From: a virus
Virus record (IMG/VR): IMGVR_UViG_3300021171_000007
Location: 15,612-79,611 of that record
Direction: 5' to 3' (one strand)
Length of the DNA: 64,000 bases
The notes below the pieces were generated by a model that searched no databases, was not told the DNA's origin, and saw nothing but the letters and a program-made list of their open reading frames with translations. The position numbers were made by a program, and so were the translations under genes. How positions within the stretch are numbered: position 1 is the first letter of the stretch; each line of letters opens with the position of its first letter. Positions 3,039 to 43,047 of the stretch are shown here, piece by piece.

Positions 3039-4621
3039 TATTGAGCCTCCGTCGTCTGTTGAGCTGGTAAACGCTGTCTTGCTTTACGTGCTTCAACTTC
3101 TTGAAGATAATCTATTACGGCATCTTCAAGTGAATCCACACGCGTAGAGCCACTTCTGCTTAATTGTCCAAGCTTGTAATGTGGTTTTCCGGGCGCACCC
3201 GCGGCGCCACCAGCACCCTCCATGGGATCAGGCTTAAATTTAGCCATTTTCTCATAATCGAGCACAAGCGGAGATGGGAACATAGCCTTTAAATCATTAA
3301 AATTATCAGATGCCCATTCGTAAATAGTCGCTTTATTATCATCGTCAGCAAGTGGAAGAAGCAATTCAAGCATAGAAATGACGCTTCTTAGCTTGACATT
3401 CGCTACTTTTATCTTTTCAGAGTCAGGTTCAGTCAACAAAGATGGCCAGATCGCAATAAAGTGATCTGACCATTCAGTAAACGCCTGATTGTAGCTCTTT
3501 TTTCCGTACTCGTCTTTGAAATCGTTCTGTACTGTCTCGTAAAATTCCAAATTCCAAGCTCGATATTGCACTATTTGAGTGAAAAAATCATATAAAGGCT
3601 GCATCGACTCACGTAATTTGTCAATATAGCGTGCTATAGCTTTGGCGTCTTCCTCTCCTTCAGCAAAGGCAACCGCTAATGTTTCTGAATTTACTAATTT
3701 TGCTGGCATTCCAGCTGCTGCTGCTATATTTTCAAGTATGTTTTTTCGTGCTGTGCGTGATGAGTTGTCTATATTCTGTAGGTTTAAAGATTCAATACTC
3801 TCATCGATTGAAATATTCATTACGGAACCAGTCATCGCCTCCTTAAGCATACCGCGCTTAATTCCAGCGATCTGCTGCATCACATTATTTATGATGCTGC
3901 CTGGTGCTTTCAACTTTGCTACGATAATTCCAGCCTTTTTCGTGACTAAATCATCTGTAATCATCGACTGCAAAAATGATTTGAGTGGATACAATGCCCT
4001 TTGGTATACTGAGCGACCCACATAGCCCCAAGCGCTAGTAGTATAATCAAGATAAATTGGGTCTTCATTCTGATATATGCAGGTTCGAGTGAAATTGTAC
4101 GCTTGTCCTTGGACAGCGATGGTTAAAGGCTTCAAAAATGTTGGAGAATTTGGATTTTGGTTTAAAACCAAGCTTCCAGCAGTATTTAATGGATCAAAAA
4201 CATTAAAAGTCATCGGTTTTTTTGATAAAGTTGCAAAATCTAATGGTTTTGTCGGATCTTCTTTGGGAATCATACAAGCTACAGAGGCAATTCCATAAAT
4301 TCTAGCTAATCTTACCACATTTGCGATGATTCTATCTGCATCTATTCGTTGCCACTCATCTGTAAACGCTTTTCTTACACGATCTTCAGGCGATCCTGGG
4401 ATATTTATGTTGCGCCCCTGAGATTGTGCCAATTGAACCGGCACATCCACGAGCTTTGCCCCATAAGGATGGTAAGAATAGATAAGCTTGCATAACTCGT
4501 AGCTGGCTGACGAGCCAAGCTCGATGTTATCTGCCATCAATATTTTCATTAATGGAGTCCCTAGTGGGGAACCGCCAAACATTCCACCACTAGGGTTCTC
4601 GATTACTGCTTCAGATGCCAT
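3038..4621 (-). CDS. Portal protein (DUF1073-like)
   Basis: ARIYGIA, WGYVGRSVYQR and IAAAAGMPAKL motifs; size and position after terminase. Confidence 0.8.
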   Translation of the reverse strand: MASEAVIENPSGGMFGGSPLGTPLMKILMADNIELGSSASYELCKLIYSYHPYGAKLVDVPVQLAQSQGRNINIPGSPEDRVRKAFTDEWQRIDADRIIANVVRLARIYGIASVACMIPKEDPTKPLDFATLSKKPMTFNVFDPLNTAGSLVLNQNPNSPTFLKPLTIAVQGQAYNFTRTCIYQNEDPIYLDYTTSAWGYVGRSVYQRALYPLKSFLQSMITDDLVTKKAGIIVAKLKAPGSIINNVMQQIAGIKRGMLKEAMTGSVMNISIDESIESLNLQNIDNSSRTARKNILENIAAAAGMPAKLVNSETLAVAFAEGEEDAKAIARYIDKLRESMQPLYDFFTQIVQYRAWNLEFYETVQNDFKDEYGKKSYNQAFTEWSDHFIAIWPSLLTEPDSEKIKVANVKLRSVISMLELLLPLADDDNKATIYEWASDNFNDLKAMFPSPLVLDYEKMAKFKPDPMEGAGGAAGAPGKPHYKLGQLSRSGSTRVDSLEDAVIDYLQEVEARKARQRLPAQQTTEAQ

Positions 4622-5694: not shown

Positions 5695-7206
5695 TTACCA
5701 AAGTTCTGAATCGCCCAGAGAAGAACATACTCCGTAGCAAAAGCAATCAACCAAATCGTCTTCTTGATCTGGCACGCCAACATTAAAACTGTGAACTTGT
5801 TTAATGAGATGATTAGCGTGTCTTTGTTTAAAATCCACAGTCTTGTTATAAGCTTGAACAGAATACTTTACCTTGCCAACGGAAACGTATCCACTAGCAT
5901 TGAGAGCACGCGGTTGTTTGCCAAGTTGTACCAACTTAGCGTCAACACCAGTTGCCAAAAGGTTGCGTCGATTACATTGTTGCAAAAGGACAATTCCAGA
6001 GCCCTTTTCTTCAATTACTGTACCAATCGACCCACGCCGCGCCCGACAAGCTCTGGCATATTCCTCAAGTTTTAAGTAAATGCCAGGTATCCAATCTATC
6101 AACAAATCAGCAGGAACTTGCAAAATATCATAATCTAAAATAGTAAGTGGCGCCGCAAAACGCTCGTTCAAAGCCCAATAGATTACTGCGGTGGCATCGT
6201 GTTTCGCATCAGCCTTAATGCCAGTATCAATAGTGGCAAAGACGCAATCAGTCCACTCAGGAAAGTTGACAGGCAATCCGTCAACAAGTAAGTCCTTTTC
6301 GAGGAAAAACGTACCACCAGGCGGCTGCGGATTTTGTTGATAGAGAGACTCAAAATCTCTAATCCCCAAGATAGTTCGCTTTCGCTCCAGAGCTTCTGCG
6401 TTTTCCCAACCAGGCCAAAGAGCCTCACCTACTTTACGTGGAGGATCAAGAGGATCATTAGCAGTTGCAAATGCTGGCAGATTTATAACAGTCCACTGAT
6501 CTCCGCCCTTATCCATTTCATTTAAAAGCATTCCACCTAAATCTTCTAAATGCCATCGTGTCTGGATAAGGATAATTCTAGCATCTGGCTTAAGACGTGT
6601 GACAAGATCTGATTTATACCATTCGTAAGTTTTTGTCCTAACGGTTTCTGATTCAGCATCCTCTCTGGATTTAACTGGATCATCAATAATTGCGAGATCA
6701 GCGCGTCTTCCAGTAATAGCGCCTCCCACACCTGCCGCGTAATATTCACCTCCGTTTGTGGTTTCCCATCGAGAAGCTGCTCTGTTTGATTCATCTAGCG
6801 AATAGCCTAAAATTGGTGACTTCAACAGTATCTTGTTACGCACCTTACGGCCAAAACGCTCAGCAAGCTCTCCTGTATGTGAACAACCAATTACAGAGGA
6901 ACGCGGAAACTTTTTAAACCAATACGGCGGTAACAATTCAGATGTATAAGTAGATTTGGCGCTCCCAGGAGGAGCAAATATCATTAAGCGATCAATTTCA
7001 CCTTTTATAACTTTTTCTAGGGCTTTGATAATGTGTCTATGATGCGGTGCTGGTTCAAAATTAAAATCATGTACGCACTCTTCACACCAAGAAAGTAAGT
7101 CGGTTTGACAAGAACGACGCCAAGCTTCAGCGCGATATTTAAGAATTTGACGCTTACGTATTGTCTCAAATTGGGATGGTTGTGAAGGCTCGAATCCCAT
7201 TGACAC
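5695..7206 (-). CDS. terL: Terminase large subunit
   Basis: Walker A APPGSAKS, Walker B IIDDP, IQTRWH, LYQQNP and C-terminal DDLVD nuclease motif. Confidence 0.95.
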   Translation of the reverse strand: MSMGFEPSQPSQFETIRKRQILKYRAEAWRRSCQTDLLSWCEECVHDFNFEPAPHHRHIIKALEKVIKGEIDRLMIFAPPGSAKSTYTSELLPPYWFKKFPRSSVIGCSHTGELAERFGRKVRNKILLKSPILGYSLDESNRAASRWETTNGGEYYAAGVGGAITGRRADLAIIDDPVKSREDAESETVRTKTYEWYKSDLVTRLKPDARIILIQTRWHLEDLGGMLLNEMDKGGDQWTVINLPAFATANDPLDPPRKVGEALWPGWENAEALERKRTILGIRDFESLYQQNPQPPGGTFFLEKDLLVDGLPVNFPEWTDCVFATIDTGIKADAKHDATAVIYWALNERFAAPLTILDYDILQVPADLLIDWIPGIYLKLEEYARACRARRGSIGTVIEEKGSGIVLLQQCNRRNLLATGVDAKLVQLGKQPRALNASGYVSVGKVKYSVQAYNKTVDFKQRHANHLIKQVHSFNVGVPDQEDDLVDCFCYGVCSSLGDSELW

Positions 7207-20596: not shown

Positions 20597-20659
20597 GACC
20601 GAAACTGGGGCGCCACAAAAGCTCTCCAGTCCTAGCGTAAGGCGCTAGCTGACGAGGTC
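20597..20659 (+). ncRNA. Hammerhead ribozyme type II, copy 1 (cleavage after C20631)
   Basis: GACC-GAAA-CTGG..CCAG-TC-CTAGCG taagg CGCTAG-CTGACGA-GGTC. Confidence 0.93.
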
Positions 20660-20678
20660 AGTAACAGGAGTTGTACTA

Positions 20679-21095
20679 ATGAAACTAGATCTTAATATTC
20701 ACATAAACTCTTGGTTGCATCGTAATGACGATGTAATCGACCCTATTCTCATTCAATTGAAGGGGAATAGCGAACGGATGATTGTAGATACTTCTGAGTA
20801 TATTTTTATCAGTTTCGAGTATCCTCTTTCACAAGGACTCGATCTGCCGTTTAATGGCAAGAAGCCTTGGAGATTGTGCGATCTTATTGATGCGATCTGC
20901 CAGGGATATGTGAAGATTTACGACGAGGAAGATGAGACCAGAACGCTTCCTGCTCAGTCCCCATTAGATTCTGTTCTGGTTAATCGTCCTAAGACTGACG
21001 GCAAGCATGGCATTTGGGGACACGATCTCAATGACCTTTATATTGAAGGCGTACATAAAGAAGAAGGAATTTGGCATCTCGATATTGGATCATAA
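20679..21095 (+). CDS. Hypothetical protein
   Basis: AGGAG SD after ribozyme; GKHGIWGHDLNDLYIEG. Confidence 0.75.
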   Translation: MKLDLNIHINSWLHRNDDVIDPILIQLKGNSERMIVDTSEYIFISFEYPLSQGLDLPFNGKKPWRLCDLIDAICQGYVKIYDEEDETRTLPAQSPLDSVLVNRPKTDGKHGIWGHDLNDLYIEGVHKEEGIWHLDIGS

Positions 21096-21107
21096 TGGGA
21101 GGGAGCA

Positions 21108-21326
21108 ATGGGATATAGAATGAGGCGTTGTGACAAATGTAAGGATTTGATAAACGGAAATGATGTTGCATTCAATATACATTTTAAATGGTGCGGACAT
21201 AATACTGGACTAAACTATATGAGTGAGAAAGATCTTAAAGTGCTGGAAGCTAAATTGGCGCAACCAAGGAAAGATTCACCAGAAGCGGCTTGGAATAAAA
21301 TGCACAATTGGTCAGGAAAACAGTAG
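21108..21326 (+). CDS. Small Zn-finger-like protein
   Basis: CDKC...HFKWC; TAG overlaps ribozyme 2. Confidence 0.65.
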   Translation: MGYRMRRCDKCKDLINGNDVAFNIHFKWCGHNTGLNYMSEKDLKVLEAKLAQPRKDSPEAAWNKMHNWSGKQ

Positions 21327-21386
21327 ACCGAAACTGGAGTGCCACAAGCTCTCCAGTCGCAGCGTTCCTCGCTGCCTGACGAGGTC
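21326..21386 (+). ncRNA. Hammerhead ribozyme type II, copy 2 (cleavage after C21358)
   Basis: GACC-GAAA-CTGGAG..CTCCAG-TC-GCAGCG ttcct CGCTGC-CTGACGA-GGTC. Confidence 0.95.
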
Positions 21387-21404
21387 AGTAATAGGAGAAT
21401 GAAA

Positions 21405-21629
21405 ATGGCACGAGTAATTGTTCAAATTAAAACTGTCACATATTTAAATGGAGCTACTACTGAAATCGAAGATGAGTTACTTCGTGAATTTACAGTAGTA
21501 ACAAAAGGTCGTGGTGCAGTGAACATGCATTCAATGGCATCAATTATACAAGGTACGATCGAATCTGCTGAGGAAAGATTTAGGGTTGAAAAGACCAAAA
21601 CATATTCAACAAATCGTAATATTGGTTAA
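21405..21629 (+). CDS. Hypothetical protein
   Basis: AGGAG at 21393-97; start 21405 (or 21399). Confidence 0.65.
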   Translation: MARVIVQIKTVTYLNGATTEIEDELLREFTVVTKGRGAVNMHSMASIIQGTIESAEERFRVEKTKTYSTNRNIG

Positions 21630-21632
21630 TTA

Positions 21633-21691
21633 GACCGAAACTGGCAGGTGCGATCTGCCAGTCGCAGCGTTTCTCGCTGCCTGACGAGGTC
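21633..21691 (+). ncRNA. Hammerhead ribozyme type II, copy 3 (cleavage after C21663)
   Basis: GACC-GAAA-CTGGCAG..CTGCCAG-TC-GCAGCG tttct CGCTGC-CTGACGA-GGTC. Confidence 0.95.
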
Positions 21692-21710
21692 AGTAACCAG
21701 GAGAACTAAA

Positions 21711-21992
21711 ATGAAACTTCCTCCAATAGAAGATGTTAAACTTACTGTCATAGGGCCGGATGATCCGCTTCCAGCGGGCTTCGAGCCCATCACCATTGTC
21801 GTCAAGGACGTATCATGTCCAAAATGCGGTGCTGGAGAGATGCACCCGGATGGCAAGCATGTCCTAATTCGTGGATTCAAAGTCTGCGATGCAAAAGGAC
21901 ATTGGTGGAGTCAATGTCTTGTCTGTGCCGGTGGGTACGACGCAGATTTGAACCCCGTTAAGGAGTTTGATCGCAACAAGGGATGGTTCTAA
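21711..21992 (+). CDS. Zn-ribbon protein
   Basis: CPKC...CLVC; AGGAG SD. Confidence 0.7.
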   Translation: MKLPPIEDVKLTVIGPDDPLPAGFEPITIVVKDVSCPKCGAGEMHPDGKHVLIRGFKVCDAKGHWWSQCLVCAGGYDADLNPVKEFDRNKGWF

Positions 21993-22231
21993 TGCCAACC
22001 ATAACAGTTGAACTCGAAGTAGCAATGGCTCAAGAGCTTGCCTCAGTAGCGCGTGGCAAAGCTAAGGGCATCGACTGGGTTCTGGAGAATAAACCTCCAG
22101 TTCCCAAGAAGGCGTTGGAGCTTGACGAGCGAGCCAAAATTCTCGTTCAAGCTGCCACACTAATCGAGACTGCTCTTCACCAAAGAGCACTCGGCAACGT
22201 CGTAAAGATGGGAGATAAAAATGTCCGATAA
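21983..22231 (+). CDS. Hypothetical protein
   Basis: Coupled ORF; true start may be ATG 21992. Confidence 0.6.
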   Translation: MVLMPTITVELEVAMAQELASVARGKAKGIDWVLENKPPVPKKALELDERAKILVQAATLIETALHQRALGNVVKMGDKNVR

Positions 22232-22520
22232 GGACCCATGGATCGTCTGCCCCGTGTGTGATGGGGAAGGCAAGACAGTCAATCCTAATATTGATGCGAA
22301 CGGATTGACTCGCGAAGACTTCGATGAAGACCCAGACTTCAGAGAAGATTATATGAGCGGCATGTATGATATTACGTGCGCCGCTTGTTCTGGGAAGCGC
22401 GTTGTGAAACAAGCACGCATCACGGAATTAGAGCAGAATGCTGAAGATCGTCGGCTTGCTGCTCGTGAAAACGGCGACTATGAATCATACAGTGTCGCAG
22501 GCGATTGGAGATACGGATGA
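22221..22520 (+). CDS. DnaJ-type Zn-finger protein
   Basis: CPVCDGEG...CAACSGKR. Confidence 0.7.
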   Translation: MSDKDPWIVCPVCDGEGKTVNPNIDANGLTREDFDEDPDFREDYMSGMYDITCAACSGKRVVKQARITELEQNAEDRRLAARENGDYESYSVAGDWRYG

Positions 22521-22759
22521 AACTGGATAAACAACGCGAAAACCGAGCCAAGTACCCTTTCATTTGTGCTTGGGGCGCTAGACTTGGTTCTTTTCAATAT
22601 TACATCGACGGTGAAGTTGCAAGAGCCATCGAAGATGGCGCTCCTGACCGTGCCATTTATAAGAGTGGCGACGGCAAGTGGCGCACCATCGATGACTGCC
22701 AAAACGAAATGGCCAAAGAAGAATGTATAGCTTGGGTGGCCAAAAACTTTAAGAAATAG
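22505..22759 (+). CDS. Hypothetical protein
   Basis: TAG overlaps ribozyme 4; true start probably ATG 22517. Confidence 0.65.
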   Translation: MEIRMKLDKQRENRAKYPFICAWGARLGSFQYYIDGEVARAIEDGAPDRAIYKSGDGKWRTIDDCQNEMAKEECIAWVAKNFKK

Positions 22760-22817
22760 ACCGAAACTGGTAGGTGCGATCTACCAGTCACAGCGTAAGG
22801 CGCTGTCTGACGAGGTC
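22759..22817 (+). ncRNA. Hammerhead ribozyme type II, copy 4 (cleavage after C22789)
   Basis: GACC-GAAA-CTGGTAG..CTACCAG-TC-ACAGCG taagg CGCTGT-CTGACGA-GGTC. Confidence 0.95.
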
Positions 22818-22835
22818 AGTAATAGGAGTTGTATA

Positions 22836-23330
22836 ATGAAACAGGTTTCTGATTACTACAAGAAGTTCCTTCATAACGACGGAATTTCCAAAGAAATGTA
22901 TAATGAAAACATCGAGCTTATTTACGATGTTGACGCAGAAATGTGGTATGCTTTTAATTACATATCACCAACGCATTACTACGAAGAATTTGAAGATCTC
23001 ATCGACGCGCTCGATTCAAATTCTGTTCTTTGGTGGCACGACTTGTCCGGCGACAATGATAAAGTTACGGACAGGAAGCAGATATTGGTAATTAAATTCC
23101 TCGATGACGAGGAAGACGAATGGACCATGTTCTACCATCACGGTATAATGGACGGCAAAGATGTAACAACATCTTGGGCTGCTCCATCTTCAGGAGAATT
23201 TCCTACTCCTGAATGCATTGTACGTCAGAAAGTATCTGTGGTGCAATGTGCTGTTGATGCCGCACAATTTATTTTTGATCAACCACATATAAATAAGCCA
23301 CGTAATCCATCACTTCGTTACGTCAAATAG
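22836..23330 (+). CDS. Acidic hypothetical protein
   Basis: Single gene bracketed by ribozymes 4 and 5; D/E- and aromatic-rich. Confidence 0.75.
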   Translation: MKQVSDYYKKFLHNDGISKEMYNENIELIYDVDAEMWYAFNYISPTHYYEEFEDLIDALDSNSVLWWHDLSGDNDKVTDRKQILVIKFLDDEEDEWTMFYHHGIMDGKDVTTSWAAPSSGEFPTPECIVRQKVSVVQCAVDAAQFIFDQPHINKPRNPSLRYVK

Positions 23331-23396
23331 ATCGAAACTATGGGGCGCCACAGGAGCGTTCCATAGTCGCAGCGTAACTCGCTGCCTGACGAGATC
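23330..23396 (+). ncRNA. Hammerhead ribozyme type II, copy 5 (cleavage after C23368)
   Basis: GATC-GAAA-CTATGG..CCATAG-TC-GCAGCG taact CGCTGC-CTGACGA-GATC; compensatory change in stem II. Confidence 0.95.
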
Positions 23397-23414
23397 AGAA
23401 AAGGAGTAGGTAGC

Positions 23415-23624
23415 ATGACGAAAGTAGATCCAAAATCTGCCTTTGAAGGGGACACCATTACTCCCGTTGAGAAGCCTAAGTCAAGGGCGCAGAAGGTTGC
23501 TGAGTACAGAGTAGCTCATCGAGCAGAGTACGAGCGAACTTGCCATGATGCACAATGCACTTGCACGCCAACTCGCGCGCAGATGTTGATTATGGATAAC
23601 TACCAAAGCCCACCAATCGACTAA
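23415..23624 (+). CDS. Hypothetical protein
   Basis: AGGAG SD after ribozyme 5. Confidence 0.65.
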   Translation: MTKVDPKSAFEGDTITPVEKPKSRAQKVAEYRVAHRAEYERTCHDAQCTCTPTRAQMLIMDNYQSPPID

Positions 23625-23861
23625 TTATAAACCTTACCATTGAACTTTGGAGCGCAGCAATGCGCTCCACTTTTAGGCAATTTTGCCACTACCAGGATAA
23701 GTAAAATGTCAAGAATAAAATCAGCTTTACGAGGTGTTGTCATAGTACCGGCTTGGGTCGTTATGCTGGCAACAGCCAGTTTTATCGTCGGAACTGGTAT
23801 CTGGACTACACTGCTGATGAGCCGCTGTTCGATCTAACCAACCTAAACCAGGAGAATAAAA

Positions 23862-24179
23862 ATGACACCTCAAGAGAGCAGGAAGAATTGGCTCGATAAG
23901 CAGCCAGTGCGCGAGAATCTTACTACTGAGCACGGATGGCCGATGCGAAATGATCATATTCTGCATCTGTTCGGTTTGCCATCAAATCATCCTATTCCGC
24001 CGGATTATGAAGATATCAAACTAATCGGTAATGTTTGGGTTCGGATTTATCCACGCGGACAGGCGCACATTGGTAGACGTGTTGTGGCAGAATGTCCAAA
24101 ATGTGAAAGATTGGTTTGTGCTGGCCATTTAATGCAACATATGAAGGTACATAATGATCGAGGAGCAAGCAAAATTTGA
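23862..24179 (+). CDS. C2H2 Zn-finger protein
   Basis: CPKC...HLMQHMKVH. Confidence 0.65.
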   Translation: MTPQESRKNWLDKQPVRENLTTEHGWPMRNDHILHLFGLPSNHPIPPDYEDIKLIGNVWVRIYPRGQAHIGRRVVAECPKCERLVCAGHLMQHMKVHNDRGASKI

Positions 24180-24337
24180 GAGATGGAAGTCCAGAGTAGA
24201 CGTTTACCTGGAGCAGATGGTAAAGAAACTAAGTGGAGATTTTAAATATGATTATCTCCACGACTTCCAAAATAAGGTTCCACCCAGCATAACAGCTACT
24301 CGCGTTGTAAAACGCCAGTACAGAAATGGAGTAGAAA

Positions 24338-24586
24338 ATGGTAGCAACAGCATACGGAGTCAAGGCAAATGGCAAAAAACTCCTCGATGAATATCGAGGA
24401 GACCGCATATATGGAGATTGTTTCATCATTCTTAAGGATGGAAAGGAAACATATGAGGTTGTTCTTTCCACTATCGGTGATATGTGCAATTGCAAAGCTG
24501 GCGAACATGGTCATCAATGCAAACATGTTAAGATGGCACTAGAATATCATCACAAAATTAACGAAGCGATTGAGGCAGTCAAATAG
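24338..24586 (+). CDS. SWIM Zn-finger protein
   Basis: CNC...CKH; TAG overlaps ribozyme 6. Confidence 0.7.
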   Translation: MVATAYGVKANGKKLLDEYRGDRIYGDCFIILKDGKETYEVVLSTIGDMCNCKAGEHGHQCKHVKMALEYHHKINEAIEAVK

Positions 24587-24649
24587 ACCGAAACTTGGGG
24601 CGCCACAAGGCGTTCCAAGTCGTGCTGTAAGGCAGCACCTGACGAGGTC
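24586..24649 (+). ncRNA. Hammerhead ribozyme type II, copy 6 (cleavage after C24621)
   Basis: GACC-GAAA-CTTGG..CCAAG-TC-GTGCTG taagg CAGCAC-CTGACGA-GGTC. Confidence 0.95.
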
Positions 24650-24673
24650 AGAAATGCCAAGGAGGTAGCACGT

Positions 24674-24808
24674 ATGGGTGACCCAGAAGAGCATAAAGAC
24701 GAAGAGTTGAGCCTTGAGAAAGAGACTCAAAAAGAGCCCAAAGAAGAGGCAAAAGAGCCAGTAAAAGAAGGTGATCCTCAACCAGAGGAAGATCCCAAAG
24801 TAGCGTAA
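24674..24808 (+). CDS. Very small E/K/P-rich protein
   Basis: AAGGAGG SD; MGDPEEHKDEELSLEK...; below the ORF-track cutoff. Confidence 0.55.
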   Translation: MGDPEEHKDEELSLEKETQKEPKEEAKEPVKEGDPQPEEDPKVA

Positions 24809-36258: not shown

Positions 36259-37404
36259 ATGTTTCTGGATAAGATCTATAAAAAGGACGTTTCTGGCAAT
36301 ATAAGAGTTTGGCAAGCCGAAGTGGGGGAAGGTGAATGGGAAGGTTGCTGGAGATCGCATCACGGTACTTTAAATGGGCAAATCCAAACAACACAATGGA
36401 CAGAAGTAGAATTAAAATCACAATCATCTATAATGGAGCAAGCTATATTTTATGCCAATGCAGAAATGAAAAAGAAATTGAAAATAGATTACAAACTCAA
36501 TATCGAAGATATAAATGAGTCTCGAATGAGTTTTATTAAACCGATGTTAGCTCATACATATGTAGGATGGGAGCGCCCATGTTTTGCTCAACCTAAGCTA
36601 GATGGCGTTCGATGCTTGGCAAATGTAGATGGGCTTTGGACGCGCACCAATAAGCAGATCATTTCTACACCTCATATCGAGGGAGAATTGAAGGCATTTT
36701 TTGAAGATCATCCAGAAATTATTTTAGATGGAGAATTATATAATCACGACCTGCATGATAACTTCAATAAGATAATTTCTTTGGCTCGAAAGACTAAGCC
36801 TGAGTTTGCGGACTTAGAAGAGTCAGCAGAGCTTATAGAATATTGGATATATGATATGTTTAATCTAGAAAATTCTGACTCTATATTTGAAGAGAGATGG
36901 GATTATATACATGACAATTTATTTAATCTAGATCATAATATAAATATGATAAAAGCAGTTCCAACTCGGTTTGTTACAACGGAAGATGAGTTGGATATAT
37001 ACAATCAAGAACTCTTATTGGACGGATATGAAGGACAAATTGTGCGCCACAATGTTGCATATCAACAGAAGCGCACAGATAAACTTCTCAAACGAAAAGA
37101 GTTCGTTGACGAAGAATATGAACTAAAATCAATTGAAGAAGGAGCAGGGCAATGGAGCGGCTATGCAAAAATAGCTGTTTGCCAATTACCAGATGGCAGA
37201 GAATTTAGAGCAGGTATATCTGGAACACAAGAATTCACATTACAACTTTTGGAGGAAAGAGAGAAGTATCATTCTGTTACGGTGAAATATCAAGCATTAA
37301 CTCCAGATGGAATTCCTCGCTTTCCAATAGCTATAAAGTTTTGGGAAGAAATGTTTGATAGACTAGACGAAGTTCTCAAACCGAAACGTGATCTTTTCGC
37401 ATAG
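36259..37404 (+). CDS. ATP-dependent DNA ligase
   Basis: KPMLA, QPKLDGVR, LDGELY, YEGQIVR, LLKRK and PRFP. Confidence 0.92.
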   Translation: MFLDKIYKKDVSGNIRVWQAEVGEGEWEGCWRSHHGTLNGQIQTTQWTEVELKSQSSIMEQAIFYANAEMKKKLKIDYKLNIEDINESRMSFIKPMLAHTYVGWERPCFAQPKLDGVRCLANVDGLWTRTNKQIISTPHIEGELKAFFEDHPEIILDGELYNHDLHDNFNKIISLARKTKPEFADLEESAELIEYWIYDMFNLENSDSIFEERWDYIHDNLFNLDHNINMIKAVPTRFVTTEDELDIYNQELLLDGYEGQIVRHNVAYQQKRTDKLLKRKEFVDEEYELKSIEEGAGQWSGYAKIAVCQLPDGREFRAGISGTQEFTLQLLEEREKYHSVTVKYQALTPDGIPRFPIAIKFWEEMFDRLDEVLKPKRDLFA

Positions 37405-37414
37405 GAGTTTGGTA

Positions 37415-38230
37415 ATGAACGAAGTGCAAACAACGACCCAAGGTCAACTAGCTTTAGATGATGAACTCTTATCGCTAGGAGGGATGGGAACTGAGAATGT
37501 AAAGTCCAAAGACGTTCTTATTCCACGCCTAGTCATTCTGCAAGCACTGTCTCCTCAATTGAACAAAAAGAAAGCAGAATACATTGAGGGTGCAGAGATC
37601 GGTGATTTCTGCAATGTGGCAACTGGTGACATTTACAAGGAATCAGTTCTCGTTGTTCCTTGCCATTTTACTACGGATTATATTGAATGGACAAAGAACC
37701 GCGGTGGCTTAGCAGCAAACCACGGAGACGATGCTTCAATTTTGAAGCACACTGTCAAGAACGACAAGAACGAGAACGTATTGACGAATGGTAACATTGT
37801 CCAAGAAACGGCACAATGGTATTGCCTTCTGCAAGATGGCGCCTCATGGTCAAGAATTTTCTTTCCGCTTAAGGCAACCAACCTAAAGCACTCAAGAAAA
37901 TGGCTTACATTATGCAGAGCAGAAGTGGTACAACTTCCGAATAACGAACTTTGGAAGCCGCCCCTTTTTTGGCGATCTTGGAAGTTGGATATTATCAGTG
38001 ATGGAAACGACCAAGGTGATTGGTACACATTTAGGCCAGTTAAGGGCGAATTAATAATGGATCTTGATCCAAGTAAGCAACTCATTAGACTGTGCAAGTC
38101 ATTTTACGAAGATATTCGTACCAACGTTGTTCGTCCTGATATTGAAACAACTCAAGACGAAACTGGTCCTATTATTGAAGGGAGAGCAAATCCAAAAACA
38201 GATCCAACCGAAAAGGATATACCATTCTAA
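37415..38230 (+). CDS. Putative ssDNA-binding/recombination protein
   Basis: DVLIPRLVILQALSPQ; SSB-like C-terminal DIPF. Confidence 0.55.
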   Translation: MNEVQTTTQGQLALDDELLSLGGMGTENVKSKDVLIPRLVILQALSPQLNKKKAEYIEGAEIGDFCNVATGDIYKESVLVVPCHFTTDYIEWTKNRGGLAANHGDDASILKHTVKNDKNENVLTNGNIVQETAQWYCLLQDGASWSRIFFPLKATNLKHSRKWLTLCRAEVVQLPNNELWKPPLFWRSWKLDIISDGNDQGDWYTFRPVKGELIMDLDPSKQLIRLCKSFYEDIRTNVVRPDIETTQDETGPIIEGRANPKTDPTEKDIPF

Positions 38231-38300
38231 GGAGGTGCTGGTGCGAGATATTGGGGTTACGCCTATATATCTGAGGGTTCGATTCCCTCTACCTCTTCCA
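38231..38300 (+). ncRNA. D-arm-less tRNA-like RNA
   Basis: Acceptor GGAGGTG/TACCTCT plus T-CCA; T arm GAGGG-TTCGATT-CCCTC; 8-nt linker in place of a D arm. Confidence 0.75.
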
Positions 38301-38316
38301 ATAGTGAGGAGATGAA

Positions 38317-38763
38317 ATGAGCCTTATTGAACACGATGTAGGTGAACACGCAACCCGAGCAATTGAAGAGAGACTTCTTGGTGTAGAAAGACCAAGATTA
38401 TTGAGAACACTTTCGACCAAACCAGAACCGGTGGTTGAGGAGCCACCGGCACCGGAACCTGAATCTATGCCAACACCTGTTAAAATAGACCATACATTAA
38501 TTCCGATCGACGCTCTTGAAGAAGTGTCACGAGCACTTATGTATGGTAAAGAGAAACATGGCGCTTGGGGATGGATAGAACATCCAAAGAGCTATACTGA
38601 GCTTCTCGCGAAAGCGCAGCGCCACATTTTTGAGTTTCAACGCGGTGTGACAATTGATCCAGCAACTCAATTGTCACATATAGCATGTGCGATCTGTGAT
38701 CTCATGTTTCTGCAATCCAATATTATAAAGGGTCGTGGAACAGATGACAGGTTCAAAGATTAA
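38317..38763 (+). CDS. dATP/dGTP diphosphohydrolase-like (DUF5664) protein
   Basis: LMYGKEKHGAWGW...RHI...SHIACAICDLMFL. Confidence 0.75.
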   Translation: MSLIEHDVGEHATRAIEERLLGVERPRLLRTLSTKPEPVVEEPPAPEPESMPTPVKIDHTLIPIDALEEVSRALMYGKEKHGAWGWIEHPKSYTELLAKAQRHIFEFQRGVTIDPATQLSHIACAICDLMFLQSNIIKGRGTDDRFKD

Positions 38764-38769
38764 GGAGCA

Positions 38770-39030
38770 TGGGAAGGCTAGGTTCGGTAGAAGTCCGATT
38801 GAAGTCCCTTCAATGAGCAACGCCTAGCATAGCAATGGACTGATCGCGCCTAATCGGAATGGAGGTAGACATGTCCTGAAGGGCATACTGAGGACCGGGG
38901 ACATACGAGGTCCATGAGAGATTGAGAACACCGTGGAAATAATCCGTAGTAGCGAAAGCTAGTGTAACTCAAACCAGGCCGTTTTGCCGCTATACCAATG
39001 CGGAGTGCTGTAAACAGCAATTAGGCCAAA
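38770..39030 (+). ncRNA. Multi-domain structured RNA
   Basis: Four consecutive closed junctions: 38777-828, 38835-915, 38922-72 and 38977-39027. Confidence 0.5.
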
Positions 39031-39040
39031 TGAGGGAGAT

Positions 39041-39391
39041 ATGGGAATAAGATTAACATATCTCCCTCTCACTAATATAGAAAAGCTAGAACGATGGCTT
39101 AAATTGGAGGTTGTAGTGGACTATAAAGAATTTGATTGCATAGATTGTAATTGCCATGTATATACATGGGCAGATGATGACAGAGAACGATGTGCAGTTT
39201 GCACATGGATTAATCAATTGCCTGATCTAACGCAAAACGAAATTGATGAGATACGTGTTATGACTGCAACTCCTATACTTCCCAAATATAGAGATGATAA
39301 TTTTCCTGAAAGAAATTGCGACTATTGTGGCAATTTATATAAAGGCCCAGCAGTTTATTGCAGCCATGCATGTGCAATGAAGGACGCTTAA
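39041..39391 (+). CDS. Zn-finger protein
   Basis: CIDC, CAVC and CDYC...YCSHAC. Confidence 0.6.
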   Translation: MGIRLTYLPLTNIEKLERWLKLEVVVDYKEFDCIDCNCHVYTWADDDRERCAVCTWINQLPDLTQNEIDEIRVMTATPILPKYRDDNFPERNCDYCGNLYKGPAVYCSHACAMKDA

Positions 39392-39392
39392 C

Positions 39393-39947
39393 ATGAACGA
39401 CGATATTCGTGATCTTTTCGGATTTGTTGCGCCATCTCAAGAGCAGTTGACGTCCATATCGAAATGGGCGAGTAAGGCTTTAGAGCTACAAGCTGAGATT
39501 GAGCAAGTTGAGGCGCACCTAAAAGAATTGAATAGAGAATTAGCCCAAATCGAAGAAGTAGATTTGCCCAGAGCAATGATGTCTGCTGGCTCGGAAGAAT
39601 TTACTATGACAGGAGGCGGCAAGATTTCCATAGACGATGTTATTCAGGGCAGTCTAGCTAAAGGTGAAGAAAAGCGGGAATATGCGATCCAGTGGGTGGC
39701 AGAAAATGACGGCCAAGAAATTATAAAAAGACATTTCGAGATAGATTACACCAGAGGCCAGCATTCCTATGCGATGGCATTACGTAAACTGCTCGAAGAA
39801 AATCAGGTACATTTTGACGAGTTTGAGAGCATTCACACTAGCACCTTCAAAGCATTTCTGCGTGAGAAGTTAAGAAAGAATATCATGCCACCCTTCGATA
39901 AGATGGGTTTTCGCTTTTTTAAAAAAGCTATTATCAAACCAAAGTAA
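39393..39947 (+). CDS. Replication-module protein of unknown function
   Basis: Coiled coil followed by LPRAM...IHTSTFKAFLRE. Confidence 0.65.
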   Translation: MNDDIRDLFGFVAPSQEQLTSISKWASKALELQAEIEQVEAHLKELNRELAQIEEVDLPRAMMSAGSEEFTMTGGGKISIDDVIQGSLAKGEEKREYAIQWVAENDGQEIIKRHFEIDYTRGQHSYAMALRKLLEENQVHFDEFESIHTSTFKAFLREKLRKNIMPPFDKMGFRFFKKAIIKPK

Positions 39948-40015
39948 GAAAATGGCAGGACACGATTGGTTTGAGGCGTTAACGTATTGTACGATTATCG
40001 TTTGGTTTTTATACG

Positions 40016-40915
40016 ATGTATGGAAGCGGCGTAATGACTGATATCCATATTATTGGAGCAGGTATGTCTGGCTTGTTGGCAGCTAATATGCTGCGGCGCC
40101 ACAGAGTAACTGTGTTTGAAAAACAAGAGCAACTTCCAAATAACCATCATGCAGTCTTACGTTTTAGAACTCCAGAAATAGGCAATATTTTGGGTATTCC
40201 TTTTAAAAAAGTTAATATGATTAAAACTTACGAGCCATATATGAATGTGGTAGCAGATAGTTTGTCATATTCCAGGAAATGCACTGGTAAATATCTATCA
40301 GATAGATCCATTATTACTGGAACTATTCAATCTGAGCGTTACATTGCGCCTCAAAATCTAGTAGAACAAATGGCAGAAAATGTTAATGTCTGCTATGGCA
40401 CAGGATTTGATCCATTAAAAAACAAAGCAAACATACCAGTTAAAGCTATTTCTACGTTGCCAATGCCTGTGCTAATGGCATTATTAGAATACGAACATGA
40501 TATTAATTTTGATAGTATCCCAGGTTGGGTCTTCACAGGCAGAATATTGGATTGCGATGCCTATGTCTCAATTTTATACCCAGGTCCACAAGTATATAGT
40601 CGCGCCACTATTACGGGAGATCAAATTATTGTGGAATTCCCCAACCTTGGAGAAATTCCTGATATTGTTGATCTTGCTAATGTTTATAACTCCCTTGGTT
40701 TATATGATTGTGTGGTACTTGATGCCGAATTTAAGAGACAGCCATATTTCAAAATAACAGAGATAGATGAAGCAGAACGCAAGGCGTTTATGCGTTGGGC
40801 AACTGTCACATATGGTATCTATTCTCTGGGGCGCTACGCAACCTGGAGACCAAAACTGCTACTTGACGACCTAATCCACGATGTCCGCAAAATAGAAGGA
40901 TGGATCTGCAAATGA
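40016..40915 (+). CDS. FAD/NAD(P)-binding oxidoreductase
   Basis: IIGAGMSGL, VFEK and C-terminal LGRYATW; true start probably ATG 40034. Confidence 0.8.
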   Translation: MYGSGVMTDIHIIGAGMSGLLAANMLRRHRVTVFEKQEQLPNNHHAVLRFRTPEIGNILGIPFKKVNMIKTYEPYMNVVADSLSYSRKCTGKYLSDRSIITGTIQSERYIAPQNLVEQMAENVNVCYGTGFDPLKNKANIPVKAISTLPMPVLMALLEYEHDINFDSIPGWVFTGRILDCDAYVSILYPGPQVYSRATITGDQIIVEFPNLGEIPDIVDLANVYNSLGLYDCVVLDAEFKRQPYFKITEIDEAERKAFMRWATVTYGIYSLGRYATWRPKLLLDDLIHDVRKIEGWICK

Positions 40916-41403
40916 CATTCGAGCAACTTCTCAAAAAGGCTGCTGAAGAAGCCAACGAACATGAGCTAGTAACTATTACTATTTCAGAAATAAGGAGCTA
41001 TCTTGACAGCATAGAAAATCAATTAGAGGAACTCGATGGTGCTTTAGATTGGGCGCAAGGTGCAGTCCATTCTGGAGAAAGTAAAGAAGCTTGGGTTCTT
41101 ATTAAGGTAGTATCATAGGAGGATGCGAATGAAAAAGCTACCTCCTTTAGGTGATCAAGCTATACAACCGGAATACAAAGAAAAGATGATAGCATTAGCT
41201 CAAGCTATTGATGAACTATTTAATGGAGAAGCCAAAGGTAAAGATAAAAAAGTTGGTTTTGTATTAATGGTATTTCCATTTGGTAACGAAGATGGGCGTT
41301 GCAATTATATCAGCAACGGTGCTGATAGAAAAGATATTGTTGTTATGATGAAAGAACAGATTAAACGATTTGAAGGCCAAAAAGAAGAAGTTGGGAGAGC
41401 ATA

Positions 41404-42138
41404 ATGAAAGTAACGCTTATTGACGGAACAGGATTTGGTTCTCCAAATCCAAGTCGCTATGCTGCAAATATGATTGCATACACTAGATCAACAAGACTCA
41501 ATATGTCTCCAGGATTACTTGCTGAAATCCAAGCAAAAGAAGATTTTGAAGTTCTTAAAGAAGTGCAATTGGCAGCAGGTACAATTCCATCTAGCTGGGA
41601 GTTCGTTCAATTCACATTTGTTATAGAGAAAGTGACACGAGCATTTACCCACCAATTGGTGCGCACCAGACACGCCTCATATGCTCAACAAGCTATGCGT
41701 ATTGTTGAGATGACAGATTTTGAATACGCTAGAGGTCCGTCTGTTGGAGAACAAGGATTATACGATGATACTATGGCAATGATTGCCAAAAATTATAAGA
41801 TATTAATTGATTCAGGTGCAACGACTGAGGATGCGAGAGGCATATTGCCAACGAATATTCTCACCAATATTTGTATGCATATCAACATGCGTAACTTTGT
41901 TAATTTGACAAGGAAACGCGTCAGTAGACGTGTGCAAAATGAGTACAGAAATGTACTTGATGCAGCAATAATTGAAGTCGAGAAAACATATCCATGGTTC
42001 TATCTTTTCTATAAAAATGATGCATTTAAGGCCAGAAAAGATCTGCAAGATATGATCTATGAAAATAAGCACCTGCTACCTGAAGAAAAGGTAGACATGG
42101 TTAAGAAATTGGATATTATAGGAGGGCAAGAGTTATGA
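41404..42138 (+). CDS. thyX: Divergent FAD-dependent thymidylate synthase
   Basis: SSWEF, TRAFTHQLVRTRHASYAQQAMR and EDARGILP. Confidence 0.8.
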   Translation: MKVTLIDGTGFGSPNPSRYAANMIAYTRSTRLNMSPGLLAEIQAKEDFEVLKEVQLAAGTIPSSWEFVQFTFVIEKVTRAFTHQLVRTRHASYAQQAMRIVEMTDFEYARGPSVGEQGLYDDTMAMIAKNYKILIDSGATTEDARGILPTNILTNICMHINMRNFVNLTRKRVSRRVQNEYRNVLDAAIIEVEKTYPWFYLFYKNDAFKARKDLQDMIYENKHLLPEEKVDMVKKLDIIGGQEL

Positions 42139-42310
42139 AATTAAATTGGGCAGAAGAACTTGCCCTAGATGTATCAATGTGTTATCAGCAAGGAAAGGTG
42201 GCGCGACAAAAGAATGAAAGCAGGTTCGACAATCCATATATGCAAAAGAAATTCACATACGAAAAAGCATGGGATCAAGGTTGGGTAGATGAGGACGGTC
42301 TTATAAATCA

Positions 42311-42757
42311 ATGATAGTTGTTGTTGATCTCGATCATACTGTGTCTGACGCGTTTTGGCGCGACAGTATGATAGGTGTCAATCCTTGGGATGAATATTAC
42401 GAAAACGCTAAGTACGATAAGCCATTCAAGAACGTAGCTAATTTAATCAATTCTCTTTCTGCTATGAACTACGAGATTATAGCATTTACTGGAAGACCAG
42501 AAAAATTTAGAACTCTAACAGTCAGTTGGTTAGTTCGTAATAGAATTGACATAGATACTATCTTGATGCGCCCAGACGAGGATTATACCAAAAATAGCGA
42601 GTTGAAACTTAGATTAATCAAAGAACATTTTAAGGATAGATTTTATCAAATACATTTTATTATTGACGATAATGAGGAATCAGTATTAGAATTTTACAAA
42701 TTGGGGATACCTACACTTCAAATAAGAAACGTAAGACCAAAGGATCTCTTCGCGTGA
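42311..42757 (+). CDS. HAD phosphatase (PNKP phosphatase-like)
   Basis: DLDHT, FTGR, LMRP and IIDD. Confidence 0.8.
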   Translation: MIVVVDLDHTVSDAFWRDSMIGVNPWDEYYENAKYDKPFKNVANLINSLSAMNYEIIAFTGRPEKFRTLTVSWLVRNRIDIDTILMRPDEDYTKNSELKLRLIKEHFKDRFYQIHFIIDDNEESVLEFYKLGIPTLQIRNVRPKDLFA

Positions 42758-43047
42758 CAGAACTATCAGAAACAGAACAAGCCATAGGACTTATGAATGA
42801 ATTAATAAAGACTATGAAGGAGCGTGAAGCAGAGTATGGTAGTAATGAACACAAAACTGCCCAGATATTGATGATATTATTTCCAGAAGGAATACATGTC
42901 AACTCTTTTGAAGCAGCAGTCAGAATTAAATTCTTGATCTATATAATAGATAAACTCAGTAGATATTCAAAAAAAGGGAATAAAGATAGTTTGATAGATT
43001 TGGCAGGATATGCGTTGCGTTTGGCAGTATTCGATCCAAAGGAGTAG
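42754..43047 (+). CDS. DUF6378/Nmad-like all-alpha domain protein
   Basis: REAEYG...KLSRY...DSLIDLAGYA. Confidence 0.65.
   Translation: MTELSETEQAIGLMNELIKTMKEREAEYGSNEHKTAQILMILFPEGIHVNSFEAAVRIKFLIYIIDKLSRYSKKGNKDSLIDLAGYALRLAVFDPKE

Follow-up and report, generated by a model that had tools for sequence, protein, structure and literature searches.

Several RNAs that resemble tRNAs do not decode. The stable RNAs C and D of phage T4 are non-decoding tRNA look-alikes, and the mascRNA-type elements of MALAT1 and MEN-beta have a degenerate anticodon arm, lie inside a longer transcript and serve as an RNase P cut site. Bacterial RNase P, as substrate work has established, recognizes the stack of acceptor stem and T stem, the T loop and the 3′ NCCA. 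Some Y RNAs (YrlA) contain a tRNA-like module without a full D arm and with a 6-nt "anticodon" loop, and a 7-bp acceptor stem made one such module cleavable by M1 RNA, the RNA of RNase P (PMC4201824). The t-elements of plant mitochondria, which contain the motif GGTTCRANYCC, are found where mRNA ends have been mapped, and RNase P and RNase Z can process them at least in vitro (PMC1920247). Here we report that a 70-nt element in a phage genome from soil metagenomes is a variant of these known tRNA-like elements; the new fact, as judged by alignment with related phages, is its clean lineage-specific insertion of 72 bases plus a duplicated AGGAG.

The DNA analyzed here (the window) is a 64,000-nt stretch, bases 15612-79611 of a 79.6-kb IMG/VR record that CheckV rates as complete. 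Three runs contain the stretch, all of soil metagenome DNA and kept as contigs. The element lies in the middle of a replication and nucleotide-metabolism operon, between genes for a Pam3 gp34-like protein and a dATP/dGTP diphosphohydrolase-like (MazZ-like) protein. Its first base, G38231, directly follows the TAA stop codon of the former, and the ATG of the latter (38317), preceded by the ribosome-binding site (RBS) GAGGAG, is found sixteen bases past its CCA. A scan of the + strand around the element found no promoter or terminator, which implied that the element is part of a polycistronic transcript. Genes in this part of the window (36259-43047) include those for an ATP-dependent DNA ligase, the gp34-like protein, a gp33-like protein, the dATP/dGTP diphosphohydrolase-like protein and an FAD/NAD-binding oxidoreductase. 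Directly past the MazZ-like gene there is a G+C-rich, 266-nt intergenic stretch (38769-39034) that lacks a good ORF and matches nothing in Rfam at E <= 1. Its equivalent in the related phage G001 is a diverged spacer of about 200 nt. The MazZ-like gene is bracketed by the element and this stretch. ARAGORN called zero tRNA genes in the 79.6 kb of the phage genome, and a search of the genome for SmpB, Ro60/TROVE, a CCA-adding enzyme, an integrase or a resolvase found none encoded.

The first-pass annotation had described a 7-bp acceptor stem, an encoded CCA, a canonical T arm, an unpaired stretch replacing the D arm and a single extended stem with the loop GTTACG, all starting immediately after the upstream stop codon and lacking both G3-U70 and a tag ORF. 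Upon reanalysis we recovered each of these features (Table 1). The acceptor stem pairs 38231-38237 with 38290-38296, has G-U pairs at both ends and carries A3-U70 (A38233-T38294) at the third position. The strands of the long stem, 38246-38255 and 38262-38272, enclose the loop at 38256-38261. Only 35 nt separate the 5′ acceptor strand from the T arm, and acceptor and T stem could form a 12-bp stack alongside the canonical T loop and U73-CCA.

Table 1. Features of the tRNA-like element and its surroundings, in window coordinates.
Feature	Positions	Strand	Basis
Upstream gene, Pam3 gp34-like protein; TAA stop at 38228-38230	37388..38230	+	Pfam PF23977, E = 7.8e-46; ORF list
Left AGGAG copy, ancestral RBS of the next gene; supplies the first four acceptor bases	38230..38234	+	Junction TAAGGAGAAGACATG in relatives; G001 blastn match ends at 38234
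5′ acceptor strand GGAGGTG, RBS-like	38231..38237	+	Sequence; fold
72-nt segment of this phage only; boundaries slide by up to 5 nt (AGGAG repeat)	38235..38306	+	Breaks of the G000/G001 matches
Unpaired linker CTGGTGCG replacing the D arm; contains GG; CTGGT typical of D loops	38238..38245	+	Sequence; fold
Long hairpin, 10 bp, T38266 bulged, 6-nt loop GTTACG, flush with the T arm	38246..38272	+	Fold
Canonical T arm, GAGGG / loop TTCGATT / CCCTC	38273..38289	+	Identical to tRNA and tmRNA T arms
3′ acceptor strand TACCTCT, discriminator T38297 (U73), encoded CCA 38298-38300	38290..38300	+	Sequence; fold
Alternative small hairpin, CTCTTCC of the 3′ acceptor strand with downstream RBS G..GAGGAG	38293..38311	+	Folds with 50-100 nt flank
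Right AGGAG copy, part of the working RBS GAGGAG (38306-38311), 5 nt before ATG 38317	38307..38311	+	
Downstream gene, dATP/dGTP diphosphohydrolase-like (MazZ-like)	38317..38763	+	Pfam PF18909, E = 3.1e-20
Starts of the hammerhead-like motif CTGACGAG within 20600-24700, each followed by an RBS	20649, 21376, 21681, 22807, 23386, 24639		

The 7-bp acceptor stem, T arm, discriminator and CCA are all features of tRNAs. We rejected a decoding tRNA, as the D stem is missing (an 8-nt unpaired linker takes its place) and a 6-nt loop sits on a 10-bp stem. When tRNA numbering is counted back from the T arm, as in the drawing by relaxed ARAGORN, the loop reads GTTACGC with U33, the anticodon TAC and G37, a hint of a decayed tRNA-Val; the stem below this alternative 7-nt loop pairs at three of five positions only, and no detector called a canonical tRNA at its normal threshold. 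ARAGORN and Infernal were among the checks proposed by the first-pass annotation. ARAGORN found zero genes at the element in either its standard or its metazoan-mitochondrial mode, and the element surfaced only when the threshold was lowered to 80% or 50%, amid noise; at 80% it was one of 44 noise-level calls across the 79.6 kb, labelled "tRNA-???(ac)". Rfam models gave no match in the element at gathering cut-offs. At E <= 10 they matched T-arm fragments only, with 11.7 bits for tmRNA (RF00023; cut-off 47) and 11.9 bits for RF04321 (cut-off 47). The match of 11.7 bits was the only one kept for the tRNA clan, so that any match to the tRNA model (RF00005; cut-off 29) would score below it.

The first-pass annotation had also likened the element to a bare tRNA-like domain of tmRNA, a likeness that held for its architecture and failed for membership of the class. 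The order of parts is that of tmRNA: acceptor, stemless GG-containing linker, long helix flush with the T arm, T arm and NCCA. One example is an 83-nt bare tmRNA-like element on a Pseudonocardia sp. contig (L070:7886-7968), which scores 59.9 bits with the Rfam tmRNA model (cut-off 47) and consists of GGGGGTA (with G3-U70), an 8-nt linker, a long stem, GGAC, the T arm and ACCA, with no message domain. Like the phage element, it sets an acceptor and an 8-nt linker before a long stem flush with the T arm. However, the tmRNAs compared have the acceptor GGGGGTA.../...TACCTCC-A, whereas in the phage element A3-U70 replaces G3-U70 and the discriminator is U73 in place of A73. In the three tmRNA examples compared, GGAC precedes the T arm; the phage element has no such GGAC, and it has neither a message domain nor a tag frame. 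An ARAGORN tmRNA search of it came back empty. Together with the score of 11.7 bits against 47, earned by the T arm only, these differences led us to reject tmRNA. A Y RNA of the YrlA kind was rejected as well, since TROVE is unmatched in the genome, and the element neither contains a Ro-binding stem nor matches Rfam.

Folding of the isolated 70-mer gave the layout in Table 1 as the minimum-energy structure, at -24.6 kcal/mol. The structure statistics were mixed, the parts outside the 3′ third being tRNA-like in outline only. For the whole fold the z-score was only -1.76, with 7 of 200 shuffles equally stable, and the middle hairpin (-8.2 kcal/mol) was matched by 13% of shuffles. When the 5′ 42 nt were shuffled, some 7-bp acceptor partner arose 7% of the time, though one placed at the very 5′ end arose in just 0.5%. 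A comparison of the middle 35 nt with 77 tRNA bodies gave no signal of tRNA-body likeness (best score 25 versus a shuffle mean of 26.6). Upon inclusion of 50-100 nt of flank, the predicted probability of the acceptor stem was 0-0.02; because 30% of 66 real phage tRNAs likewise lose their acceptor stem, this test cannot discriminate.

The alternative hairpin seen in these longer folds bears on a translational switch. In such a switch, CCTCT of the 3′ strand would pair either with the upstream GGAGG, leaving the downstream RBS free, or with the downstream GAGGAG, blocking it, and would thereby tune MazZ-like expression to translation of the upstream gene. Both pairings were predicted, depending on the length of flank in the fold, and the element does lie exactly between stop codon and RBS. 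However, only a short, weak hairpin would do the blocking, a switch would not account for the canonical T arm or the CCA, a plain RBS suffices in the relatives and the arrangement is not conserved, all of which makes a switch very unlikely in our estimation.

The clearest sign of ancestry lies in the 3′ third. The 21-mer GGGTTCGATTCCCTCTACCTC, which spans the T arm and 3′ acceptor, is identical in phage tRNA-Tyr, phage tRNA-Asn and two permuted tmRNAs, as well as in bacterial tRNA-Ala, tRNA-Gln and a tmRNA. Over the T arm and 3′ acceptor, 23 of 24 bases equal those of a Bacteroidota tmRNA (L065). From the exact 21-mer, it is beyond doubt on sequence grounds that the 3′ third (T arm, 3′ acceptor strand and CCA) derives from a tRNA or tmRNA. 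The T-loop word GGTTCGATTCC (38276-38286) occurs once, as an exact match, in the 64-kb window. Toward the 5′ end, the strand GGAGGTG is the same as in a phage tRNA-Asn (L054), and GGAGGTG-CTGG-T is weakly like GGGGGTAACTGGAT of tmRNAs. Matches in the INPHARED phage collection were to ordinary tRNAs, over the T arm and acceptor only, with the 5′ half unmatched.

Other tRNA-shaped units were noted in other contigs. Permuted two-piece tmRNA genes reside in large phage tRNA arrays on viral contigs of 110-115 kb (L052:78-312 and L056:5642-5876), scoring 62 and 57 bits with RF04321 (cut-off 47); ARAGORN also calls the one in L052. Phage units on the minus strand of L054 (at 2389 and 993) and in L058 (at 1175) combine acceptor and T arm with aberrant bodies and go uncalled by ARAGORN, and one unit of these L054/L058 tRNA arrays has a G3-U70-type acceptor, GGGGTTG/CAGCTCC-A. 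Acidobacteriota MAGs contain short tRNA-shaped units with bodies of 34-39 nt (L064, minus strand, about 5805-5878; L067:7860-7928), an alanine-type acceptor GGGGGTA / TACCTCC-A and a canonical T arm. One of them adjoins a tRNA-Ser, and neither ARAGORN nor Rfam called either. Lastly, two bacterial contigs (L063 and L069) hold orphan copies of the same 3′ end as the phage element, with no tRNA or tmRNA called.

Of the two functions that the first-pass annotation had put forward, a decoy and an RNase P processing signal, the former turns on the likeness to tmRNA. The released RNA would mimic the tRNA-like domain, be unchargeable with alanine (A3-U70) and absorb SmpB, another tRNA-binding host factor or a defence nuclease. 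The architecture shared with L070, which passes the Rfam tmRNA cut-off, the 23 of 24 bases in common with the Bacteroidota tmRNA and the weak likeness at the 5′ end are consistent with this, as is the finding that large phages whose metagenome samples have neighbouring IMG numbers encode permuted tmRNAs with the same T arm. However, the tmRNA model responds to the T arm only, GGAC is missing, the discriminator is U73 and the same 3′ end is also part of ordinary phage tRNA-Tyr and tRNA-Asn genes. Moreover, the loop presents no anticodon to anticodon nucleases, one copy in an mRNA implies low stoichiometry and the element is unconserved. We found nothing in support of an action on SmpB or on defences, and the phage encodes no SmpB of its own; a decoy is in our view quite unlikely.

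To place the element among related phages, we compared its junction across contigs. A search with the gp34-like protein returned 50 related viral contigs, the closest 17 being 57-92% identical. In 15 of these 17, the stop codon is joined directly to the RBS and the next start codon, and in the remaining two (L016 and L017) the junction holds unrelated sequence in which no tRNA was called. An alignment of six relatives shows a 77-column gap facing the element. Against G001, a 94%-complete relative, the whole-genome blastn match stops at 38234 and resumes at 38307, and the two G001 segments overlap by 5 nt, implying 72 inserted bases plus a duplication of AGGAG. The only other sample with the element, from a second soil study, has it in identical form and so offers no covariation to compare; it also contains a relative whose sequence departs from that of the phage precisely at the insertion point. 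By these comparisons, the element is a clean lineage-specific insertion, apparently a recently acquired one-off. The AGGAG repeat fits recombination at RBS microhomology and target-site duplication equally well, and inspection of the sequence revealed no terminal inverted repeats. We rejected a miniature transposable element on the grounds that the element is single-copy and lacks such repeats, leaving only the 5-bp AGGAG repeat to fit. The phage retains a good RBS for the MazZ-like gene despite the insertion, and four of the seven 5′ acceptor bases may be the old RBS.

Copies elsewhere were sought in several collections. No second copy was found in the phage's own genome by blastn-short, none in five related virus records searched whole, none in IMG/VR with a pattern combining 5′ strand, linker and T loop (0 matches) and none in two exact-pattern scans of metagenome contigs (0 matches). 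As a singleton insertion absent from close relatives, the element offers no conservation argument for a function. An 18-mer from the stem-loop matched once in IMG/VR, inside an unrelated small ORF of L059: positions 38250-38271 equal L059:8913-8934 (minus strand), a 22-nt exact identity within a 57-codon ORF (peptide WGYAYIS).

This identity lies in one of two open frames across the element and was weighed as evidence that the segment is coding, either as a 24-codon micro-ORF (GTG 38241 to TGA 38313-38315) or as a 29-codon read-through tail (38231-38317, TGA 38318-38320). The GTG has AGGAGG ahead of it at acceptable spacing, and the L059 identity is in the read-through frame. However, the tblastn peptide match (E = 1) extends over just 10 residues and homology goes no further, and by our estimate about one to two random 18-mer matches are expected in a collection of IMG/VR's rough size; we judged the identity to be probably chance. 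Since the T arm, acceptor and CCA have no coding rationale and the frames are missing in relatives, we consider a coding function highly improbable.

The 3′ ends of tRNA and tmRNA genes are classic integration targets. An attachment site, or a scar of site-specific integration carrying a host tRNA or tmRNA 3′ end, would fit this pattern and the orphan 3′-end copies in L063 and L069. However, neither a tyrosine integrase (PF00589) nor a serine recombinase (PF00239) is found in the CheckV-complete 79.6-kb genome, on which grounds the attachment site was rejected; the location mid replication and nucleotide-metabolism operon and the absence of the element from relatives also speak against it. We regard it as the least probable of the explanations considered.

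A neutral relic deserves more weight and is the main rival to the explanation we prefer. Here, a decayed tRNA, possibly a tRNA-Val(UAC) with a truncated D arm, or the end of a tmRNA would have been captured by illegitimate recombination at RBS microhomology and tolerated, unselected, since the RBS was regenerated. The element is a singleton that is absent from relatives and was found nowhere else searched, and its sequence likeness to tRNA is confined to the 3′ third. Moreover, the acceptor may owe four of its seven 5′ bases to a pre-existing RBS, a 7-bp partner arises in 7% of shuffles and the loop, counted back from the T arm, still shows U33, TAC and G37 on a degraded stem. Against this, the fold is compact with no spare bases, from an acceptor at the first base past the stop to a long stem flush with the T arm, and a partner at the very 5′ end is found in only 0.5% of shuffles. 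Phage genomes, in addition, rarely keep useless DNA. We consider a relic possible but doubtful. A relic with the same fold would still be cut by RNase P, so that it differs from the explanation we prefer in selection only.

The explanation we prefer is that of a tRNA-derived element, akin to plant-mitochondrial t-elements, that host RNase P could cut at 38230/38231. We put the chance that this is correct at about even. RNase P cleavage is the likeliest activity for an element that retains a canonical T loop, a 3′ UCCA and a 7-bp acceptor able to stack on the 5 bp of the T stem. In this scenario, a 72-nt cassette, a mini-module derived from a tRNA or tmRNA, would have inserted at the RBS that separates the gp34-like and MazZ-like genes in one phage lineage, duplicating AGGAG. 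Transcribed within the operon mRNA, the element would, if folded as predicted, present host RNase P with a cut site between A38230 and G38231. Cleavage there would leave the stop codon as the very end of the upstream message, and host 3′ processing past the CCA would free a downstream message with an unpaired RBS, which might benefit the phage.

Three observations on RNA cassettes between genes raise our prior for such a processing role. First, another operon of the phage contains six near-identical hammerhead-like units between genes, each running GAAAC, hairpin, GTC, hairpin, CTGACGAG, GTCAG, then TAAnAGGAG and a start codon (Table 1). Rfam gave no match for these units at E <= 0.1. Second, relatives have five units (G001) and two (G002), which suggests that RNA cassettes between genes come and go. 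Third, the same intergenic slot in L018, a relative with 57% identity, is occupied by a canonical tRNA-Met that encodes its CCA (3809-3884). This tRNA starts 7 nt past the stop codon of the gp34-like gene and precedes an RBS and ATG; its stretch comparable to the linker CTGGTGCG reads AGCTGGTAG. The presence of this tRNA suggests that RNase P-type punctuation is tolerated exactly here.

Several points argue against an RNase P role. By comparison of the junctions there is no conservation, as the 15 closest relatives are without the element and L018 has a true tRNA instead. The structure statistics are weak (z-score -1.76; shuffles 7% and 13%). A ribosome that terminates at the TAA would cover the 5′ acceptor strand, setting translation against folding, and cleavage would strip the upstream mRNA of a protective 3′ hairpin. 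An RNase P processing signal is compatible with all observations and is our best guess among the two functions proposed by the first-pass annotation. A combined form, in which a selected mini-RNA released by RNase P, an alanine-disarmed tmRNA-like domain, both punctuates the operon and titrates SmpB or another host tRNA-binding factor as a free 70-mer, seems to us improbable.

If RNase P does cut the element, the phage would combine two message-cutting devices in separate operons, the hammerhead units and a borrowed tRNA shape. The insertion and the element-free relatives provide a natural with/without pair for its effect on the two flanking genes. Even a relic would show how a tRNA-type cassette can enter phage operons at RBS microhomology, with the L018 tRNA-Met occupying the same slot. 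As a single unconserved example, the element carries modest weight.

Compared with known systems, the element resembles the phage tRNA look-alikes (T4 RNAs C and D; the L054 units at 2389 and 993) in that an aberrant body is framed by a canonical acceptor and T arm, but it stands alone in a protein-coding operon, outside any tRNA array. With the tRNA-like module of YrlA it shares tRNA mimicry but not the Ro-binding stem, and the phage does not encode Ro60/TROVE. For the mascRNAs, which are eukaryotic and conserved, experiments have demonstrated processing. In its proposed function, the element comes closest to the plant-mitochondrial t-element (PMC1920247). Those elements combine an acceptor stem with a non-canonical cloverleaf whose T arm keeps GGTTCRANYCC well, and the phage element likewise carries a T-arm motif of this type, GGTTCGATTCC, in a non-canonical tRNA-like fold embedded in mRNA. 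They differ from the phage element, which is a putative substrate of bacterial RNase P, encodes its CCA and occurs in single copy. Like it, t-elements are embedded in mRNAs beside reading frames, where they are proposed to set mRNA ends via tRNA-processing enzymes; an element cut by RNase P would be their phage counterpart.
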